Of a stretch of 64,000 nucleotides of DNA, positions 31,565 through 39,337 are shown piece by piece. Numbering within the stretch: the stretch's first letter is position 1; every line of letters starts with the position of its first letter. The position numbers and the translations under genes were made by a program. Location: contig JBHYGA010000006.1 of the NCBI GenBank assembly GCA_051859245.1, forward strand, positions 224,001-288,000, in the 5' to 3' direction. The DNA comes from Gemmatimonadaceae bacterium (GTDB taxonomy: Bacteria; Gemmatimonadota; Gemmatimonadetes; Gemmatimonadales; Gemmatimonadaceae). The notes beneath the pieces are model-generated. The model made no database searches. It saw only the letters and a program-made list of their open reading frames with translations, and was not told the DNA's origin.

Positions 31565-32929
31565 ATGTCCGATTTGCTCGCCGCGCGAAGCCAAATGGCG
31601 ATGTCGCTCGGTTTTCACATACTGTTCGCGGTGGTTGGCATCGGTATGCCGGCGCTCATGGTGATCGCTGAGTACCGCTACCAGAAACATGGCGATCCGC
31701 TGCTCAAGGAGCTCGCCAAACGGTGGGCCAAGGGCACCGCGATCCTGTTCGCGGTGGGAGCCGTCTCCGGTACCGTGCTGAGTTTTGAACTCGGTTTGCT
31801 CTGGCCCACGTTCATGGAGCACGCGGGCGGCATTATTGGCATGCCGTTTTCTCTCGAAGGGTTGGCGTTTTTTACCGAAGCCATTTTTCTCGGCATTTAT
31901 CTCTACGCCTGGGATCGCGTCTCGCCGCGCGCGCATCTCGCTGCCGGTGTGGTGGTGGCCGTGAGCGGTGCGCTCTCCGGTGCGTTCGTGGTGACGGCCA
32001 ACGCGTGGATGAATGCACCCACCGGCTTTACCGTCACCAACGGGGTGATTGGCAACGTGGACCCGATCGCCGCCATGCTGAATCCTGCGGCGTTCACTCA
32101 GGTGCTGCATATGACACTCGCCGCGTACGCCGCGACGGGTTTCGCCACGGCGGGTATCCACGCCATCGCACTGCTACGCAACACGCCGCATCGCGTGTTT
32201 CATCGCTACGCGCTGCAGATCGGGTTGCTGGTGGGAGTGCCGGCGGCCTTGTTGCAGCCGCTGTCGGGAGATCTCTCTGCCCGACATGTGGCCGAGTATC
32301 AACCGGTGAAGTTCGCCGCCATGGAGGCGCATCATCACACTGGTCCGATGCCGTTTGTGATTGGCGGCTGGCCGGATGTCACCGCCGGCACGAATCGATT
32401 TGCCATTGAGATTCCGGGTGCGGTATCACTGGTCATGAAAGGTGACGCCAACGCCAGCATTCCGGGATTGGACAGCGTGGTCGAGGCAGATCGTCCACCC
32501 GTCGCCATCGTGCACGTGGCATTTCAGATCATGATCGCGTGTGGTGTGATCATGGGATTCGTGGGACTGTGGACCATTGTGCGCATCTGGCGACGCAAGC
32601 GCGGTCTCGGCGTGTCGCTGCCCAATGATCGACTGTTTCTGCGTTTGCTCGCGTTCAGTGCGCCGTTAGGCTTTGTTGCGGTTGAAGCCGGTTGGACGGT
32701 GACTGAAGTTGGGCGACAGCCGTGGATCGTGCAGGGATTCATGCGCACGGCTGATGCCGTGTCGCCCGTGCCCGGACTCGTGGTGCCGTTTATCGGATTT
32801 ACGTTGCTCTACATTGGCTTGGCGATCGCGGTGGTGTGGTTGCTGTATCGTCAAATCATCAAGACCGGTGTTGGCGCCAATCCGCGCGCCGGATTTACTG
32901 AAGAGCTGCCAGTGCCGGTGCGATCATGA
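31565..32929 (+). CDS. cydA: Cytochrome bd ubiquinol oxidase subunit I
   Basis: FHILF, FELGLLWP, QPVKFAAME, EVGRQPW. Confidence 0.95.
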   Translation: MSDLLAARSQMAMSLGFHILFAVVGIGMPALMVIAEYRYQKHGDPLLKELAKRWAKGTAILFAVGAVSGTVLSFELGLLWPTFMEHAGGIIGMPFSLEGLAFFTEAIFLGIYLYAWDRVSPRAHLAAGVVVAVSGALSGAFVVTANAWMNAPTGFTVTNGVIGNVDPIAAMLNPAAFTQVLHMTLAAYAATGFATAGIHAIALLRNTPHRVFHRYALQIGLLVGVPAALLQPLSGDLSARHVAEYQPVKFAAMEAHHHTGPMPFVIGGWPDVTAGTNRFAIEIPGAVSLVMKGDANASIPGLDSVVEADRPPVAIVHVAFQIMIACGVIMGFVGLWTIVRIWRRKRGLGVSLPNDRLFLRLLAFSAPLGFVAVEAGWTVTEVGRQPWIVQGFMRTADAVSPVPGLVVPFIGFTLLYIGLAIAVVWLLYRQIIKTGVGANPRAGFTEELPVPVRS

Positions 32930-33975
32930 GTACCGACACGCTGTTCACACTGCCGCACGCAGTCGCCGGCGTGATGGTGTTGTCGCTCAATGCGTATGTG
33001 CTGCTCGCTGGCGCCGATTTTGGTGGCGGTGTGTGGGATTTGCTCGCAAGCGGTCCGCGTCGCGAGCAGCAGCGTGCCACCGTGGCCGACGCGATCGGCC
33101 CGATCTGGGAAGCCAACCATGTGTGGTTGATTCTCGTGGTCGTGTTGCTCTTCTCCTGTTTTCCGCGCGCGTTTGCGCACTACTCCACCACGTTGCATGT
33201 GCCGCTCACGCTCATGCTCGTTGGGATCGTGTTGCGTGGATCAGCGTTCACGTTCCGCAGTTACGACAGCAAGGCCGACAACGTGCAGCGCCGCTGGGGT
33301 CGCGTCTTCGCCATTGCGAGCGTGGTGACACCCGTGCTGCTCGGCGTGTGCCTGGGCGCGGTCGCGAGCGGCCGCGTGCCGATGGTACCGCTCGATTCGT
33401 CGCGGACGTTTGCCGAGCTGTATCTGACGTCGTGGCTGAATCCGTTTGCGCTGGCCGTTGGTGTGCTGACGCTGGCGCTGTTTGCACATCTCGCGGCGGT
33501 ATATCTGGCGTGGGAGAGCACCGAAGCTGAGCTCAAGAACGACTTTCGGGAACGCGCGCTGCACGCGGCGGTGTGTGTGTTTGTTGCCGGCACGCTCACG
33601 ATTGTCCTGGCGCAGCGGAACGCACCGCTGGTGTACGCGGGTCTGACCTCGGGAGTCACGGCGCTCGGCATGCAGGGTGTGACGGCGATTGCCGGCCTCA
33701 CGGGTGTGTGGGCGCTCTGGAAACGCAAATGGTTTCTGGCGGTGGTGTGTGCGGCCGCGCAGGCCTCTTTCCTGCTCTGGGGCTGGGCCTGGTCGCAGTT
33801 TCCGTGGATGGTGCCACCGTCGCACACCATCACCGAGCTGTCGGCACCACGCGTCACACAACAGCTCGTGCTCGGCGTACTCGGGGTTGGTACGGTGATC
33901 CTGCTGCCGTCGTTCGTCTACCTGTTTCGGATTTTCAAGCGACGTGAAACGGCGTTTGAACGGCTCGACGCATAG
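32926..33975 (+). CDS. cydB: Cytochrome bd ubiquinol oxidase subunit II
   Basis: GADFGGG, IGPIWEANHVWL; ATGA overlap with cydA. Confidence 0.95.
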   Translation: MSTDTLFTLPHAVAGVMVLSLNAYVLLAGADFGGGVWDLLASGPRREQQRATVADAIGPIWEANHVWLILVVVLLFSCFPRAFAHYSTTLHVPLTLMLVGIVLRGSAFTFRSYDSKADNVQRRWGRVFAIASVVTPVLLGVCLGAVASGRVPMVPLDSSRTFAELYLTSWLNPFALAVGVLTLALFAHLAAVYLAWESTEAELKNDFRERALHAAVCVFVAGTLTIVLAQRNAPLVYAGLTSGVTALGMQGVTAIAGLTGVWALWKRKWFLAVVCAAAQASFLLWGWAWSQFPWMVPPSHTITELSAPRVTQQLVLGVLGVGTVILLPSFVYLFRIFKRRETAFERLDA

Positions 33976-34064: not shown

Positions 34065-34760
34065 ATGCGACCAGACCTGATTCGCGTTGTGCTCATTGAT
34101 GATCACGCGATTGTTCGCGCGGGACTGAAAGCCATTCTCGCGACGGCCCGTGACATCATGGTGGTTGGCGAGGGCGGCAACGGACGCGAAGCGTTGTCAC
34201 TGGCTGAGCGGCTTGATCCGCACGTCGTGGTGATGGACCTGTCCATGCCGGAAATGGATGGCCTGGCCGCCACGCGTGAGCTGGTCAAAGCCAACGGCAG
34301 TCGACCGGTCGTGAGCGGCACACCACAAACACGTCGTGTGCTGATGCTCACCATGCACAGCGAAGACGAACATCTCGTGGCCCTGCTCGAAGCGGGCGCG
34401 GGTGGGTATTTGCTCAAGACGGTTGCCGATCGCGAACTGGTGGACGCGGTGCGCACGGTCGCGGCGGGCGATATCTACGTGCAACCCTCGGCGGCCCGCG
34501 CACTCGCACGCGGCCTGGCGCGCAAGGAAGAGCACGCCGACGATCGCACCAAGTTTGAACGGCTCACCGAGCGCGAGCAGGTGGTGCTCAAGCTGTTCGC
34601 CGAAGGTTACACCGCGCCGGAAATTGGCGAGCGGTTGTCGATCAGTCCGAAAACGGTGGATACGTACAAGCAGCGCATCAACGAGAAGCTGCACATCACG
34701 CATCGCACGGATTACGTGAAGCTGGCGCTGCGGCTCGGGTTGCTGAGTTCCGAGGATTAG
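34065..34760 (+). CDS. NarL/FixJ family response regulator (orphan)
   Basis: DDHAIVRAG receiver plus LuxR HTH (LTERE...ISPKTV). Confidence 0.92.
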   Translation: MRPDLIRVVLIDDHAIVRAGLKAILATARDIMVVGEGGNGREALSLAERLDPHVVVMDLSMPEMDGLAATRELVKANGSRPVVSGTPQTRRVLMLTMHSEDEHLVALLEAGAGGYLLKTVADRELVDAVRTVAAGDIYVQPSAARALARGLARKEEHADDRTKFERLTEREQVVLKLFAEGYTAPEIGERLSISPKTVDTYKQRINEKLHITHRTDYVKLALRLGLLSSED

Positions 34761-34787
34761 CCGCAGCGCTGGAAAATGCTTTTGCCG

Positions 34788-35945
34788 TTAGTTGGGCGGA
34801 TGCTTGTGCCCACCCACCATTTCGCCCCAGCCCATGCCGGTGTGTTTCCCGGTCTGATCATCGTGCTTCATCACAGCACCGCGTGACACAGTGGGAACAG
34901 GAAACTCCGCCGTGAACCCCACCGCCGGCCCTCCCTGATTTTCCACGCCCATCTCCTTGGACATCACCAACCACGCGGCCGTTGGCATCACATACGACGT
35001 GTCGTCGCGATAGCGCGACGCAGCGAGCATGATCTCCCGACGTTTATCGCGATCGGGCACGCTGTCGTTCGCGAGGATGTCACTGATGACATCGTGCATG
35101 GAATGCAGATTATCAAAGATGATCGCAACCGTCGGATAACGTGCGGCGAACGTTGGCGCAATCGTCGCCGTCATGGGCATCACTACGGGCATGTGCATCG
35201 GCGCGTGTTGAATCATGCCACGAAAACGATCGGTCGTTGCACGCACCAGACTGTCACGCTCAGCGTCGGTCTTCGCCACCATCAGCGGCTCGTACAGCCC
35301 CACCTGCAACCAGTGATACGCCCAGATCAGTCCGTTGAACTTGGGATACTGTTTGCGAAACGCCAGTGAGTACGGCATCTCCTGCATCAGCCGCATGCTC
35401 TTTGGCTTCGTGCTGAACGCGAGGTCGGGACGCGCGAAATAGGCGGCGATAATCCGTTCGGTTTCCCGATCCTTCGCCGCTTCATCGAGTCGCTGGTCTG
35501 ACCAGATGTCGTAAATCTGGCGGTGCAGAATATGCGCCCACTCGAACATGAGTTTGGCTTCGGGCGCCACACGCGCGTACGACGGCATGATCGCTTCTTC
35601 CGCCAGCGGCAAACGCGGCGGATTCACGAGCAGTTTGTTCACCAGAAAATTGAACTCACGCTCTTCGAGACGAGGAATCGCCTTTTCAACCGGTTCCTTC
35701 CACAAGACTTCATACAAAATCGCGTGGCCGTAGTCGAACGCGTTGAAGAGTTTGGCCGCGTCTGGATAGGTGCTCAGAAAGCGCCAGTTGAAGCTGCCGC
35801 CAGGGTAAAACTGTTCGGCGGTCGTGACCCACTGCGCGTGCAGTGACTTCGCCGGCGTAGACATCACCGCAGCAACGGCAACCAGCAGCGTGCTGCGTCG
35901 CACGATTCGTGACAGAATTCTCTCAGGCATCTGTTGTGTCTCCAT
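34788..35945 (-). CDS. Hypothetical exported His/Met-rich helical protein (putative metal-binding)
   Basis: Signal ending LHA-Q; internal duplication with HxxH motifs; HAPMHMPVVMPM; C-terminal GHKH. Confidence 0.75.
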   Translation of the reverse strand: METQQMPERILSRIVRRSTLLVAVAAVMSTPAKSLHAQWVTTAEQFYPGGSFNWRFLSTYPDAAKLFNAFDYGHAILYEVLWKEPVEKAIPRLEEREFNFLVNKLLVNPPRLPLAEEAIMPSYARVAPEAKLMFEWAHILHRQIYDIWSDQRLDEAAKDRETERIIAAYFARPDLAFSTKPKSMRLMQEMPYSLAFRKQYPKFNGLIWAYHWLQVGLYEPLMVAKTDAERDSLVRATTDRFRGMIQHAPMHMPVVMPMTATIAPTFAARYPTVAIIFDNLHSMHDVISDILANDSVPDRDKRREIMLAASRYRDDTSYVMPTAAWLVMSKEMGVENQGGPAVGFTAEFPVPTVSRGAVMKHDDQTGKHTGMGWGEMVGGHKHPPN

Positions 35946-35947
35946 GA

Positions 35948-36856
35948 TCAGAACAGGCGACGACCGAGGCCAAGCGCAATCGCGCTGCCCACGGTAAACG
36001 ACCACTGCTTATGCGTACCGCTCAACTCTCGGCCCACGCCCACATCAAACACGATCCGCGGCGAGACCTGATGACGAACACCCGCGCCGGCCGCCCAGAC
36101 CACGTCGGCCTCTGCCTCCAGACCGCGCTGCGCAAACACTTCCGCAGCGATCAGTGTGGACTTGAGCGGGAACGCACGATCCATCGAAACGCCTGCCATC
36201 CAGCGATGCGGCAGTTCAGCGATGGGTCCATTGTCGCTCAGTTCATCAACGGTTGGTGCATCTCCAAACGTGACGGACGCGTTGCCGTGCAATCGTACCG
36301 CGCCAAGCGCCGGGAGCGTTCGCGTCACGATGCCGGTGAGCGCGGGATAGGCGCGGTCTGGCGAGAACGCACCAACTGGCAACAACACTTCACCGCGCAC
36401 GGCAAACGCAGGTATGCGCGTCTCCACATTGAGCTGGTGAAACACTGACATGTGCAATCCCGAGAGGCCAGTTGTTCTCACGCTGCCATCAAACGGGACC
36501 GACGACGGAGACGGCGCGCGCAGCAAATCGCCGGTGGGCACGGACACCATGGGAAAGCCAAGCGACACGTGCGTGCGGGGAAACAGTCCGAACGCGAGCT
36601 CAGGTTCAACCTCGGCATGCCACGCGTCGCCGGCGCGTTCAAGACGTAACGGAGCGAACTGGAGCTCGATCGCACGCCACTCAATGGAAAGCGCATCCTG
36701 CACGCGCAGTGGACGTGAACCGTCGGTGTTGAAAAAGTCCGTTTGTGCCTGCGCGCTTCGGGGCGCAGCCGCTAAAACGATTGCAGCGCCAAGCGCAGCG
36801 GCGCTGGCAAATATTCGTACACGCGCGCGTCGTAGCGCACGAAGAGTGTACCACAT
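35948..36856 (-). CDS. Putative outer-membrane beta-barrel protein
   Basis: Signal AQA-Q, alternating beta strands, terminal Phe; GAGG RBS. Confidence 0.7.
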   Translation of the reverse strand: MWYTLRALRRARVRIFASAAALGAAIVLAAAPRSAQAQTDFFNTDGSRPLRVQDALSIEWRAIELQFAPLRLERAGDAWHAEVEPELAFGLFPRTHVSLGFPMVSVPTGDLLRAPSPSSVPFDGSVRTTGLSGLHMSVFHQLNVETRIPAFAVRGEVLLPVGAFSPDRAYPALTGIVTRTLPALGAVRLHGNASVTFGDAPTVDELSDNGPIAELPHRWMAGVSMDRAFPLKSTLIAAEVFAQRGLEAEADVVWAAGAGVRHQVSPRIVFDVGVGRELSGTHKQWSFTVGSAIALGLGRRLF

Positions 36857-36872
36857 GCAAACCTCAGAATTG

Positions 36873-36950
36873 TGAGTGATCGATCGCGGCGATTGTCGCG
36901 CGAGCAGAATCCAATCAGCCGGTCGCTATGGGCCGGCTGGCGATCACTCA
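36873..36950 (-). promoter_or_regulatory. Structured intergenic RNA linking the leader stop codon to the downstream translation start region
   Basis: Minus strand TGAGTGATCG...CGATCACTCA 10-bp closing stem with two inner hairpins; ends 7 nt before GAGG. Confidence 0.6.
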
Positions 36951-37427
36951 GGCTCGTGGCGGCGGTACGTCTGGGGCGTTGGCCGGTCCAGGAGGCGCAA
37001 TCGGGCTCGGCGCGCGATTGAGCGCGGCCACGATGCGGAGTGCGCCTGACGCACGCTCGTCGTGGTTGCTGACGGCGACGGTGCAGCCAGACGCACCACT
37101 GCAGTGTTCGGGTGCGCCCTGCTGCGGGCAGCAATCGTGAGGGGCAGCATCCCCGATGTCGTTCGCGGAGACCTTCGCTGCCACGGAAACTGGTGCGTCC
37201 GAAGTCTCGGCTACGGCGTCGTGTCCCGCGTGGTGTCCTGCGGACACCGGTGCGTTCTGTGACGCATCTGCGCCATGCGCAGCGGTCGCCGCGCCATGGG
37301 ACGCGTGCGACGACCACGCCTCTGCCTCGCCGAGTAAATGCGACAAACAGGCGCCGCCGCCCAGAAGAGACGGAACCAGCACCGCTGCCAACCACACCGC
37401 CATCACTCGTCGCCAGATCGAACGCAT
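36948..37427 (-). CDS. His/Cys-rich leader-type protein with C-terminal PPPRA (DUF2946/CutF-like)
   Basis: Hydrophobic N-terminus; HASH, GHHAGH, HDCC, HCSGASGC; ends RAPSPIAPPGPANAPDVPPPRA. Confidence 0.65.
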   Translation of the reverse strand: MRSIWRRVMAVWLAAVLVPSLLGGGACLSHLLGEAEAWSSHASHGAATAAHGADASQNAPVSAGHHAGHDAVAETSDAPVSVAAKVSANDIGDAAPHDCCPQQGAPEHCSGASGCTVAVSNHDERASGALRIVAALNRAPSPIAPPGPANAPDVPPPRA

Positions 37428-37458
37428 GACCCAAGGTAGCAAAACCGTCCGGAAAAAG

Positions 37459-37475
37459 ATACCCCCTAGGGGTAT
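37459..37475. promoter_or_regulatory. CsoR/RcnR-family operator-like palindrome
   Basis: ATACCCC-CTA-GGGGTAT, ~30 bp upstream of the leader start; matches the TAC-C-tract/G-tract-GTA operator style. Confidence 0.7.
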
Positions 37476-37489
37476 TTATCCGGTGGCGG

Positions 37490-39337
37490 TCACGTTGTGC
37501 CGACGGGCTCCGCTGCGCGCGCCGTTTGCGCCGGCGGTGTGAGGGTAGGAGCGGCCCGGTCCGGCGCCGGGATCTCCATGAGTGCACCCGAGATCTGGTA
37601 CCCGCTGTCCTCGCGCAGCGACCGTGCGATCGAACGGCGTCTATCGTCGATCGTTTCGCCGCCGTCTTCAAGCGCGATGCGGAGATCGCGGAACCGACGC
37701 CCGGAACTCACACAGAACAAGTCGCACAAATCGAGCTCGCGCGCGCACGCGTCGACACCCTGCTGCTCGATCAATCGCTGCGTGCGTGAAATGGTGGCCG
37801 TGCGTGCGTAGAGCTCCGCCGCCATATCCGCCAGGCGTTCCACGACCATCTGTCGCTCGATCAGCTTTTTCTTGTGTTTCATGACCGCGCGCTCGGTGGC
37901 CTGCGCCAACTCTGCGGTGTGCTTCTCGACAAAGCGCGCGTGTGGTTCAAGTCGCGCGTGCAACTTCACGTCAAATCGCTCGTGACGGCCAAGCGCCGAT
38001 TTCACGCGACCACCTACATACTCGGCCACGCGCTCCCAATGTTGCAACGGACTCTTGAGCGCGTCGGCCACTTCCTGGAGCTGCGCCGCGGGTCCCTGCA
38101 CACCATTCAAGCCAACATACAATCGCAAAATCTCGTTCGCGCCTTCAAAGATTCGATTGATGCGGGCATCGCGCAGATACCGCTCGTACGGCCATGGTTT
38201 CACAAAGCCGCGACCGCCCGCGAGTTGCACCATCTCATCACTTGCGCGCCAGATCAACTCAGACGCGAACACTTTGACAATCGCGGCCTCAAGTGACGCG
38301 TCAACGTCTTTACCATCGAGCGCCGCGGCAAGTGCCCCAACCATCGCGTCCGCCGCATACACGTCCGCGGCCATCGTGGCCGCTTTGCGCTGCGTGACTT
38401 CGAACGAGGCGAGTGGCGCGCCAAACTGCTGACGTAGCTCACCGTAGGCGATGTACTCGCTCACGAGCAACTTGGCGGCGGTCGTGCAGCCGGCCGCGAG
38501 TGACAGTCGACCGGCGTTCAGTGCGTTGACGGCAACCTGAAATCCCTTGCCCACTTCGCCGAGCACGTGATCATCGGGTACATACAGTCCGTCAAAAATC
38601 AGCTCGGCTTGTGTGCTCGCGCGAATGCCAAGCTTACGCACGGTACCGTGCACGTGAAACCCGGGCATATCGGGACGAATGATGAACGCCGTTGGGCGTT
38701 GCACCATCTTGCCGTTCCGTTCAACGAGCGTTTGTGCAAAGGTGACAATGACGCCGGCGCGCTGTCCGTTGCCAATCCAATGCTTGCGGCCATGCAACAA
38801 CCAGCCGTGTCCATCCGGCGCACGTTCGGCGCGCGACACAATGTTCTGCGCGTCGGAGCCCGTTTCGGGTTCGGTGAGCGCGTATGCGCCGAGTGTTTCG
38901 CCGCGTGCGAGCATTGGCAGGTAGCGCGCTTTCTGCTCGTCGTTGCCAAAGAGTACGATGGCCTTTGACGACAATCCGCAGTGCACGCCAATCAGCACAG
39001 CAAGCGACGCATCAACCGCGGCCACCGCGCCTGCAACAACGGCGTAGCCGGACGCCGAGAGCCCAAGACCGCCGTACTCGCGCGGAATGGAGATTGAGAG
39101 CATGCCACACGCGGCGAATGCTTCAATCACGGCTTCCGGAATCATCTCGGCTTCGTCCATCGCGGCCGGATCAATCACTCCGTCGCGCACGAGGCGGTGC
39201 AACTCCGCCACGAGGCGCGCTGCGACCGCCGCGTCCTCCGGCGCCCGCTCAGTGAGCGGGGCCGGATACGGGAACATCAGAGACTCGTGCAGCTCGCCTT
39301 CGAACAGCCCTCGAACGAACGACGATGGCATCGTCAC
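37490..39337 (-). CDS. Acyl-CoA dehydrogenase (ACAD9/VLCAD-like)
   Basis: YALTEPETGSDA, RQQFG, GGRGF, RIFEGANEILR. Confidence 0.93.
   Translation of the reverse strand: MTMPSSFVRGLFEGELHESLMFPYPAPLTERAPEDAAVAARLVAELHRLVRDGVIDPAAMDEAEMIPEAVIEAFAACGMLSISIPREYGGLGLSASGYAVVAGAVAAVDASLAVLIGVHCGLSSKAIVLFGNDEQKARYLPMLARGETLGAYALTEPETGSDAQNIVSRAERAPDGHGWLLHGRKHWIGNGQRAGVIVTFAQTLVERNGKMVQRPTAFIIRPDMPGFHVHGTVRKLGIRASTQAELIFDGLYVPDDHVLGEVGKGFQVAVNALNAGRLSLAAGCTTAAKLLVSEYIAYGELRQQFGAPLASFEVTQRKAATMAADVYAADAMVGALAAALDGKDVDASLEAAIVKVFASELIWRASDEMVQLAGGRGFVKPWPYERYLRDARINRIFEGANEILRLYVGLNGVQGPAAQLQEVADALKSPLQHWERVAEYVGGRVKSALGRHERFDVKLHARLEPHARFVEKHTAELAQATERAVMKHKKKLIERQMVVERLADMAAELYARTATISRTQRLIEQQGVDACARELDLCDLFCVSSGRRFRDLRIALEDGGETIDDRRRSIARSLREDSGYQISGALMEIPAPDRAAPTLTPPAQTARAAEPVGTT

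Follow-up and report, generated by a model that had tools for sequence, protein, structure and literature searches.

A putative copper-responsive operon of a Gemmatimonadaceae bacterium with two predicted levels of control

A 64,000-nucleotide stretch of the genome of a Gemmatimonadaceae bacterium (contig JBHYGA010000006.1, positions 224,001 to 288,000; hereafter the window) contains a set of minus-strand genes that probably forms a copper-induced operon controlled at two levels, with as its cargo an outer-membrane barrel and an exported protein, here called P3. The names of homologues likewise point to the Gemmatimonadaceae. The window lies on contig C6 of the genome, which has a size of 4,698,531 bp, is 99.87% complete and is labelled G000 below. 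The elements follow one another in the order: end of an acyl-CoA dehydrogenase gene, a palindrome, a leader open reading frame (ORF), a spacer of 91 nucleotides (nt), the barrel ORF and the P3 ORF (Table 1). An earlier note on this DNA, made from its letters, had proposed the palindrome, the leader, a structured spacer, the barrel and P3 as parts of one system, and all five are present on the minus strand at the positions of Table 1, including the gap of only 2 bp between the barrel and P3 genes (TGA tc ATG). The sequence features, their conservation, the linkage of the genes and the identity of the operator are the solid part of this description. A copper-responsive operon linked to the repressor CsoR is very probable, and control by an arrest peptide, argued by analogy with known leaders, is rather likely. 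An export role of the cargo is put forward tentatively; the function that we consider most likely is handling of copper in the periplasm, or its export, under induction by copper.

Table 1. Features of the candidate operon and its neighbours (positions in the window)
Feature	Position	Strand	Remarks
Acyl-CoA dehydrogenase gene	37490-39337	minus	upstream neighbour; stop codon 15 nt before the palindrome
CsoR-type operator ATACCCCTAGGGGGTAT	37459..37475	.	candidate; TAC-N9-GTA with C/G tracts
Possible -10-like element TACCTT	37433..37438	minus	ends 5 nt before the leader ATG
Leader ORF, 159 aa	36948..37427	minus	Cx5C with C109 and C115 (37083-37103); PPPRA-stop (36948-36965)
Leader-tail/start-region pairing	36848..36968	minus	predicted fold; inner hairpins between the helices
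Intergenic spacer, 91 nt	36857-36947	minus	between leader and barrel
Barrel ORF, 302 aa	35948..36856	minus	COG4313/PF13557 type; signal peptide ends AQA/QTDFF (cleavage at the slash)
P3 ORF, 385 aa	34788..35945	minus	exported, Met-rich, internally duplicated; signal-peptide-like N-terminus
NarL-type response regulator	34065-34760	plus	converges on the end of the operon (3' side of P3)

CsoR proteins repress transcription until Cu(I) binds to them. The palindrome ATACCCCTAGGGGGTAT, which ends 32 nt before the leader ATG, is the sole site of its kind in the window when up to three mismatches are allowed, its two matches being both strands of one site, and two or more palindrome matches occurred in none of 100 shuffles. 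It consists of a TAC-N9-GTA inverted repeat flanking G/C tracts, as is characteristic of type 2 CsoR sites. Its 15-nt core TACCCCCTAGGGGTA is identical, letter for letter, to the copZA1 and copZA2 operators of Streptomyces lividans in Table 1 of PMC3902906; according to that paper, S. lividans CsoR binds both operators, and TAC-N9-GTA is required for binding. The pattern ATACC-N7-GGTAT occurs at two sites in the whole genome, namely at this locus and, at a distance of 95 nt, before a cupredoxin-like gene behind which lies a gene for an HMA-domain P-type ATPase (copA). The proposal of a CsoR-type palindrome is hence borne out both by the published operators and by the only other genomic site, which lies in the copA promoter.

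The copA promoter (L002:5100-5160, equal to G000:C1:256100-256160) contains TTGACA, followed by a G-box TAGGGGGAGGGGGTATA and then the palindrome ATACCCACGGGGGGTAT. The sole other copy of this G-box is located just upstream of csoR, the promoter of which has the G-box only. Likewise, the form TAGGGGG-N-GGGGTATA is found in the genome in the copA and csoR promoters only, the background of a looser G-box definition being three occurrences in 4.7 Mb. The presence of both box types in the copA promoter suggests two operator classes for one CsoR. Since boxes are shared between this locus, copA and csoR, the genome seems to have a three-promoter copper regulon of which this locus would be one member. 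The earlier note correctly stated that no csoR gene lies in the window and proposed to look for one elsewhere in the genome; a single homologue was identified on contig C5 (G000:C5:571276-571515; PF02583, 96 bits). Its best relatives in the PDB are CsoR 4M1P (E 1.6e-20) and S. lividans CsoR 4ADZ (E 1.3e-19), and compared with 4M1P, 4ADZ and 2HH7 it has kept the positions of the Cys, His and Cys ligands of Cu(I) as well as RLRR at the position of the RLxR DNA-binding motif.

Gene order also connects the cargo to copper homeostasis. The neighbourhood of P3 was compared in 80 loci, the best 80 of at least 600 matched stretches, with which 20 separately fetched loci overlap in species. The barrel gene is adjacent and upstream of P3 in all 20 fetched loci and in 79 of the 80, the single exception being cut by a contig end. 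The conservation of the neighbourhood, proposed by the earlier note as a check, is thus nearly complete for the barrel-P3 pair, and partial for the leader (36 of 80 loci) and for a CsoR-type box (20 of 80). Directly upstream of the pair, and on the same strand, copA and csoR are found in 19 of the 80 loci, two of which (L093, from Roseisolibacter sp. H3M3-2, and L125) also have a leader; copA alone is located upstream in two loci, downstream in eight and on the opposite strand in three. No such context was seen in 14 loci, and in seven of these the sequence upstream spans less than 800 bp. Of 61 relatives, 26 have P3 (a tally that includes genome G021), and relatives of P3 are encoded in at least 578 of the 600 matched stretches listed, with one genome per species. 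Nearly all of the best 80 stretches are labelled Gemmatimonadota, and two carry no phylum label.

The leader ORF encodes a basic and then hydrophobic N-terminus resembling a signal peptide, a His-rich middle part and the C-terminus ...APDVPPPRA-stop. It is enriched in His (6.3%), Cys (3.1%) and Pro (9.4%) relative to a background of 2.9, 1.2 and 5.2%, in agreement with its original description as a His/Cys-rich exported leader ending in PPPRA. In an alignment of 13 leaders from relatives the mean column identity is only 30%, and Cx5C, P152 and PPP155-157 are nevertheless invariant (13/13). There is also an invariant Cys immediately behind the hydrophobic segment. A basic region and a hydrophobic run of 15-18 residues are present in these aligned leaders. 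Conservation is confined to the N-terminal segment, Cx5C and the last ~10 residues; the middle is free in length and sequence. An exhaustive profile search, used instead of a word-based homologue search that gave 6 proteins only, retrieved 335 cluster representatives at E<=0.001. From these the best 150 were taken and combined with the 13 aligned leaders. In 162 of these 163 sequences both Cx5C and a terminal PPP occur, with 38 (11 sequences), 39 (112) or 40 (39) residues between them, and in 156 of the 162 precisely two residues separate PPP from the stop. Because the profile itself favours Cx5C and PPP, this count is to some extent circular; as a sequence pattern, the apparent gap-free ruler within an otherwise free leader is still notable. 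A crude pattern for the basic region and hydrophobic run matches 95 of the 163. Members of the family have lengths of 93-224 aa (mean 142), and the window copy, with 159 aa, exceeds the <150-aa rule of PMC9973294. Leaders located upstream of barrels end in PPP-[RK]-x-stop in 33 of 36 cases.

This anatomy resembles that of two described copper-sensing leaders. According to PMC9973294 and bioRxiv 10.1101/2025.02.05.636593, CutF ends in P109-EPEGPPPRL-118, a sequence whose PPP is required for control by copper; for DUF2946 proteins, PMC9426467 gives a CxxC-to-RAPP spacing of 45 residues, conserved to within 1-2. The present leader belongs to a family that has no name in Pfam, and by analogy we favour, on balance, a role as a CutF-like arrest peptide. 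The family is not tied to one kind of cargo. A leader match was found in 14 of 201 sampled genomes of the phylum, including this one, and among ten long ORFs scanned downstream of leaders in other genomes, seven encode OEP (TolC/CusC-like) proteins and three gave no Pfam hit; OEP is also the commonest neighbour class of CutF-like genes according to PMC9973294. In three loci from another family of the same class (L149, L151 and L153, of genomes G215, G103 and G144), the gene directly behind a leader with the end ...SPDTPPPRTA encodes a P3 homologue (E ~5e-47), without an intervening barrel gene. Judged by these genomic contexts, the leader is a portable regulatory module and not a cargo subunit.

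The same leader could also be seen as a working copper chaperone of the barrel-P3 pair, either membrane-anchored or periplasmic, rather than as an arrest peptide. Its 159 residues are many for a leader, the position of the invariant Cys after the hydrophobic segment and the potential of the His-rich stretches to bind metal would suit such a role, and it would be co-transcribed with the cargo. We nevertheless consider a chaperone unlikely: the middle of the protein varies freely, while the distance from Cx5C to PPP is fixed at 38-40 residues in all sequences of the count except one and the stop codon has a fixed position behind PPP, members of the family stand before OEP genes too, 44 of the 80 barrel-P3 loci have no leader, and CutF itself is degraded after export. 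As a separate observation, in locus L049 (genome G045) an ORF of 154 aa with CWCHC and further Cys and His residues lies between a leader-like ORF, which ends in PPPPGTPPPEA, and the barrel gene; it may encode another metal protein.

The segment 36840-36975 has a predicted folding energy of -50.6 kcal/mol with a z-score of -3.28, and 1 of 200 dinucleotide shuffles is as stable; a slightly different segment evaluated with mononucleotide shuffles gave a z-score of only -1.57. To this extent the structured intergenic region that had been noticed at the start is supported. In the minimum-energy fold, one helix is formed by 36950-36956 (CGAGCCU, the last leader codons and two stop-codon bases) and 36858-36864 (AGGUUUG, Shine-Dalgarno sequence of the barrel gene), and a second by 36962-36968 (GUACCGC, Val-Pro-Pro codons) and 36848-36854 (GUGGUAC, starting from the G of the barrel AUG). 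Relatives have different sequences with a recurring topology, in which proline codons CCUCCG pair with a CGGAG Shine-Dalgarno sequence, and in more distant families with spacers of 45-63 nt CAGCUCCUC pairs with GAGGAGUUG. Folds were predicted for each sequence separately because a MAFFT alignment of the spacers was poor. In a set of 37 loci, pairing with the final 33 nt of the leader takes up a share of 0.34 of the start-region bases (-16 to +6), versus 0.11 in shuffles, which were mononucleotide shuffles and hence a weaker control, applied to loci that are kin. This share is at least 0.25 in 24 of the 37 loci, including 11 of 12 from the same genus, and lower in the remaining 13. No Rfam family was found at E<=1 over 34500-37800.

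The leader and spacer would acquire the opposite meaning under CruR-type logic, in which copper on the nascent leader relieves a stall, Rho terminates transcription before the barrel gene, and barrel and P3 form an acquisition channel that is made when copper is scarce. CruR, a DUF2946 protein, acts in this way upstream of a TonB-dependent transporter according to PMC9426467. The 3' part of the present leader is C-rich, the genome has a separate CruR-like upstream ORF (uORF) before a TonB-dependent receptor, so that such logic may exist in this organism, and transport through the barrel could run in either direction. Several features speak against such repression by copper, which we regard as improbable here. 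A CsoR operator implies induction by copper, opposing copper-triggered termination, and the barrel-P3 pair directly follows the exporter gene copA and csoR in the 19 loci mentioned above. Moreover, we find here a short, structured spacer with predicted pairing to the start region, whereas in PMC9426467 the Rho site of CruR is tied to unstructured mRNA within cruR; the cruR spacer is 162 nt long.

The separate uORF (L157:400-837, plus strand) is a second exported His/Cys-rich ORF of 146 aa with a CxCxxxC motif and the end ...WPTAPPVLFA. The TonB-dependent receptor gene (Plug and beta-barrel domains; L157:1013-3385, plus strand) starts ~175 nt after it, the two together spanning G000:C1:1687399-1690384, and the arrangement resembles CruR-BfrG. 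This uORF aligns over its full length with DUF2946, albeit below threshold (E 0.072), and has a weak match to the leader profile (E 0.0011).

The first cargo protein matches PF13557 with 26 bits, against a cut-off of 22; two distant homologues score just under the cut-off (19.4 and 21.5 bits). Its predicted structure (pLDDT 83) has as best Foldseek match in the PDB the COG4313 channel 4RL8 (E 5.2e-7, TM 0.54/0.60), and 12 strands were counted by eye in the DSSP string, in line with its initial recognition as an outer-membrane barrel. No match of the barrel to the CopB/PcoB family (PF05275) was found at E<=1, and the genome as a whole has no CopB/PcoB (PF05275) or CusF family match; multicopper-oxidase domains gave six matches in it. 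In the searchable literature no paper was found that links COG4313 or PF13557 to copper.

P3 has 3,798 database relatives at E<=0.001, and all names among the matches listed are 'hypothetical'. The earlier note had described it as an exported His/Met-rich protein; its N-terminus is indeed signal-peptide-like and Met is enriched (5.7% versus a background of 1.7%), but His is barely so (only 3.4% versus 2.9%). The core of P3 is highly conserved. Its invariant residues are H74, E79, H138, H141, D146, H211, E219, H281, H284, D285 and D289, six of them His, with HxxH at 138-141 and 281-284. The two halves of the protein are homologous (hhalign probability 95.1%, E 3.2e-8, 118 columns), which agrees with the duplicated HxxH helices that had been proposed. 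A Met/His patch is present at residues 244-258, the C-terminal tail is rich in His and Met, and many homologues have long C-terminal tails with MDHSKMP-type repeats. Such Met/His tails are typical of Cu(I) sites. The structure model is confident (pLDDT 87, pTM 0.83) and all-helical. P3 has no Pfam or NCBIfam match; against the PDB, Foldseek gave no hit at E<=0.001 and the best sequence-profile match (E 0.39) is not credible. A VIA-align comparison with 48,161 chains reached a best Z of 4.3, such a weak or missing match being no proof of a new fold, and its Atlas neighbours are unnamed Gemmatimonadota clusters only. Among 120 homologues listed, some longer ones contain additional domains, presumably in the extra length: DUF4440/SnoaL_3 (PF14534, PF13474) in six and DUF305 (PF03713) in one (P0063, P0095, P0099, P0105, P0110, P0111 and P0086).

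The two cargo proteins may also form a physical unit. A model of the barrel-P3 complex scored 0.81, with 0.61 for the best of three controls; repeated runs agree in >=85% of contacts and the pLDDT of the partner is >=90. Of 157 solved complexes, 116 reach the mark used for such models, as do 2 of 215 mismatched pairs. The present model passes this mark and supports binding between barrel and P3, though it is no proof of it. The interface residues of the barrel belong to the periplasmic turns and both termini (strand order read by eye), which fits a periplasmic P3 and a C-terminal fusion. A fusion of this kind exists in genome G047 (10 contigs, 99% complete), where barrel and P3 are encoded as one in-frame ORF of 581 aa; a Gly-rich linker replaces the signal peptide of P3, and the other frames contain no signal-like sequence. 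A second fusion candidate, in L081 (2500-4900) of a long-contig metagenome-assembled genome, was rejected: the barrel is split over two frames and P3 keeps its signal peptide, as would result from a frameshift or assembly error.

Comparison of the region upstream of the leader is informative on the nature of the palindrome, which could be a mere intrinsic terminator of the acyl-CoA dehydrogenase gene, leaving the operon outside the control of CsoR. The sequence does score as a terminator-like hairpin with a T-run: a 7-bp stem and a 3-nt loop are followed by CTTTTTCC, at 15 nt from the dehydrogenase stop codon. The palindrome is conserved in 10 of 11 same-genus loci, in which the arms ATACCCC/GGGGTAC are kept and the centre varies, and a T-run is present in only about 3-4 of the 11 (read by eye). 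A leader start could be assigned in ten same-genus loci. Nine of them have the box upstream of the leader ATG, its first base lying at a distance of 27-48 nt, and in seven of these nine the position is -47 or -48. Together with a core that equals proven CsoR operators and with the copA promoter as the sole other genomic site, this makes a terminator without operator function very improbable. The two roles are compatible in the window, and the palindrome may double as a terminator. Over the 80 related loci (573 kb), 13 palindromes and 7 G-boxes were recognised, before the leader, the barrel or copA. A response to Ni, Co, Ag, Zn or another stress sensed by the CsoR/RcnR family is hardly credible instead of copper, even though relatives in this family sense Ni, Co or formaldehyde, InrS and FrmR are among the PDB matches of the genome's CsoR and some CutF-like leaders with His-only motifs adjoin Ni/Co genes, given that the regulator, whose nearest structures are those of CsoR proteins, shows the Cys-His-Cys pattern, the operator is shared with the cupredoxin and HMA-ATPase operon, the leader has Cys motifs and P3 homologues have MDHSKMP-type tails.

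A sigma-70 scan found no promoter at the leader. By eye, a TAnnnT element ending 4-7 nt before the leader ATG could be recognised in 9 of 10 same-genus copies, including that of the window, and the ATG is not preceded by a Shine-Dalgarno sequence. Because of these two features, the leader mRNA is possibly leaderless or nearly so.

From these data we infer the following scheme for CsoR binding, ribosome stalling, the response to copper, and what the cargo does chemically and in which direction. In the first layer, CsoR encoded elsewhere in the genome would bind the TAC-N9-GTA site ~40 nt upstream of the leader ATG and leave it when cytoplasmic Cu(I) rises. In the second layer, by analogy with CutF, the leader would be exported during its translation. 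Periplasmic copper meeting the Cx5C/His region would cause the ribosome to linger on PPP-R-A-stop, which follows the Cys motif at a distance of 39 residues. In this position the ribosome would cover the last ~30 nt of the leader ORF, which otherwise would be paired with the Shine-Dalgarno sequence and AUG of the barrel gene. With the helix between leader tail and start region held open, the barrel could be translated, and P3 along with it from its start 2 bp behind. P3 would then dock on the periplasmic turns or mouth of the 12-strand barrel and collect Cu(I) pumped by CopA, and the pair would either pass Cu(I) out or detoxify it in the periplasm.

Several observations weigh against this proposal of a copper-induced, doubly controlled operon. 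The loci compared are kin and not independent samples. A CsoR-type box was recognised in only 20 of the 80 loci and the leader is absent from 44, which indicates that each of the two layers is specific to certain lineages. In the window, the palindrome with CTTTTT behind it is also consistent with a terminator of the acyl-CoA dehydrogenase gene ending 15 nt upstream. As for the RNA, the overall fold stability in the 37 loci is ordinary (mean z -1.0, with 7 of 37 below -2), total pairing of the start region does not exceed that in shuffles (0.50 versus 0.59), and RNAalifold on the MAFFT alignment of ten same-genus spacers, a poor alignment, gave three pairs with no covariation and no consensus; many leaders outside the genus precede barrels that lack a clear Shine-Dalgarno sequence. 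In the complex modelling, the control scoring 0.61 was one in which the barrel had been replaced by an unrelated protein, and the score margin is therefore exactly at the mark. Export, oxidation, storage and uptake are not separable as functions of P3, because it has no relative of known function.

The comparison with DUF2946 belongs among these points as well. Pfam DUF2946 (PF11162) gave no match to the window leader at E<=1. A six-frame search of the genome at E<=10 produced three weak matches, none of them the leader, and none of the 13 aligned leaders matched at E<=10. Out of 32 family representatives one was matched, with E 0.078 below the cut-off, though in a full-length alignment. The leader logic that the earlier note took from DUF2946 leaders is supported by the CutF/CruR anatomy; as there is no Pfam DUF2946 match, the leader is said here to work like CutF, and homology is not claimed.

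The closest parallel for the regulatory part is the cutFOG operon of Rhodobacter capsulatus. CutF is an exported uORF product, as the present leader is predicted to be, and both have a Cys motif ~40-45 residues before PPPR-x-stop (GPPPRL in CutF, VPPPRA here); the short spacer of CutF has a structure that hides the next ribosome-binding site, as predicted in the window, and both head copper-homeostasis genes. Unlike CutF, the present leader lacks a Pfam DUF2946 match, has Cx5C at 39 residues instead of CxxxC at 45, and is 159 aa long; the predicted anti-start strand lies inside its last codons, a CsoR-type operator is located upstream, and the cargo consists of barrel and P3 instead of a multicopper oxidase. 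The CruR-BfrG pair of Bordetella pertussis (PMC9426467) likewise has a copper-sensing uORF, here a putative one, with a fixed Cys-to-proline spacing and an outer-membrane protein gene in next position. In that system, however, copper relieves the stall, Rho terminates and the uptake transporter is repressed, with a RAPP motif and a 162-nt spacer, whereas the operator and copA neighbourhood of the present operon point to induction by copper. The S. lividans CsoR promoters (copZA, csoR; PMC3902906) have the identical core TACCCCCTAGGGGTA and a repressor with the same RLRR and Cys/His/Cys residues; here, binding is predicted, no CopZ/CopA pair is controlled, and a second, translational layer would follow. 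The comparison of operator, leader anatomy and copA-csoR linkage supports the suggestion of the same two-layer logic serving a different cargo.

As regards the cargo, the PcoB/CopB and PcoA/CopA systems of copper resistance combine an outer-membrane barrel with a periplasmic Met/His-rich copper protein and are copper-induced. The present pair has the same design, with copper induction predicted, but no sequence relation: the barrel is of the PF13557 and not the PF05275 type, and P3 is all-helical and not a multicopper oxidase. The COG4313 channel 4RL8 of Pseudomonas putida F1 is the PDB structure that the barrel model resembles most, and the two share their Pfam family; it has no P3 partner, and the sequence identity is 13-14%. 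In its boldest form the proposal would be that P3 has a new fold, that its duplicated helices hold a binuclear site of six His with the activity of a cuprous oxidase or the role of a Cu(I) gate, and that it caps a COG4313-type barrel at the periplasmic mouth to form a previously unknown outer-membrane copper-export machine that completes CopA-driven efflux in Gemmatimonadota, gated by the coincidence of cytoplasmic copper (through CsoR) and periplasmic copper (through a new Cx5C-39-PPPRx arrest-peptide family on a leaderless mRNA). As a whole we hold this extended scheme to be doubtful.

For its regulation the operon has elements of known kinds, a CsoR operator and a leader of the CutF/CruR type, which are new variants and are newly combined. 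Its cargo is undescribed, consisting of a channel family without a metal link in the searchable literature and a protein family without a described relative. A description of the barrel-P3 module was not found in the literature searched, the supplementary neighbour tables of PMC9973294, which may already list such leaders, being outside its reach; the papers listed on copper and CsoR do not mention Gemmatimonas. The known copper arrest-peptide leaders CutF and CruR are mostly proteobacterial and defined through DUF2946. Their design recurs at this Gemmatimonadota locus, in a family missed by the Pfam model and with the rigid ruler Cx5C-39-PPP-R-x-stop. The family could serve as an independent test bed for the stalling of an intracellular ribosome by extracellular metal binding. 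As a natural case, one operon appears to stack two sensors, CsoR in the cytoplasm and a nascent chain in the periplasm, and gene order ties both cargo families to copA-csoR. If true, the operon would represent a new outer-membrane copper system in a phylum that is widespread in soil and freshwater.

The response regulator gene that converges on the operon in the window has counterparts elsewhere. In five loci of other genera (L104, L106, L112, L126 and L127), a NarL/LuxR-type regulator gene (E ~1e-80) lies directly 3' of P3 on the same strand. Since the regulator stands beside P3 in both arrangements, the neighbourhood survives rearrangement. Upstream of the response regulator in the window, two long plus-strand ORFs at 31565-33975 look like the cytochrome bd subunits CydA and CydB.

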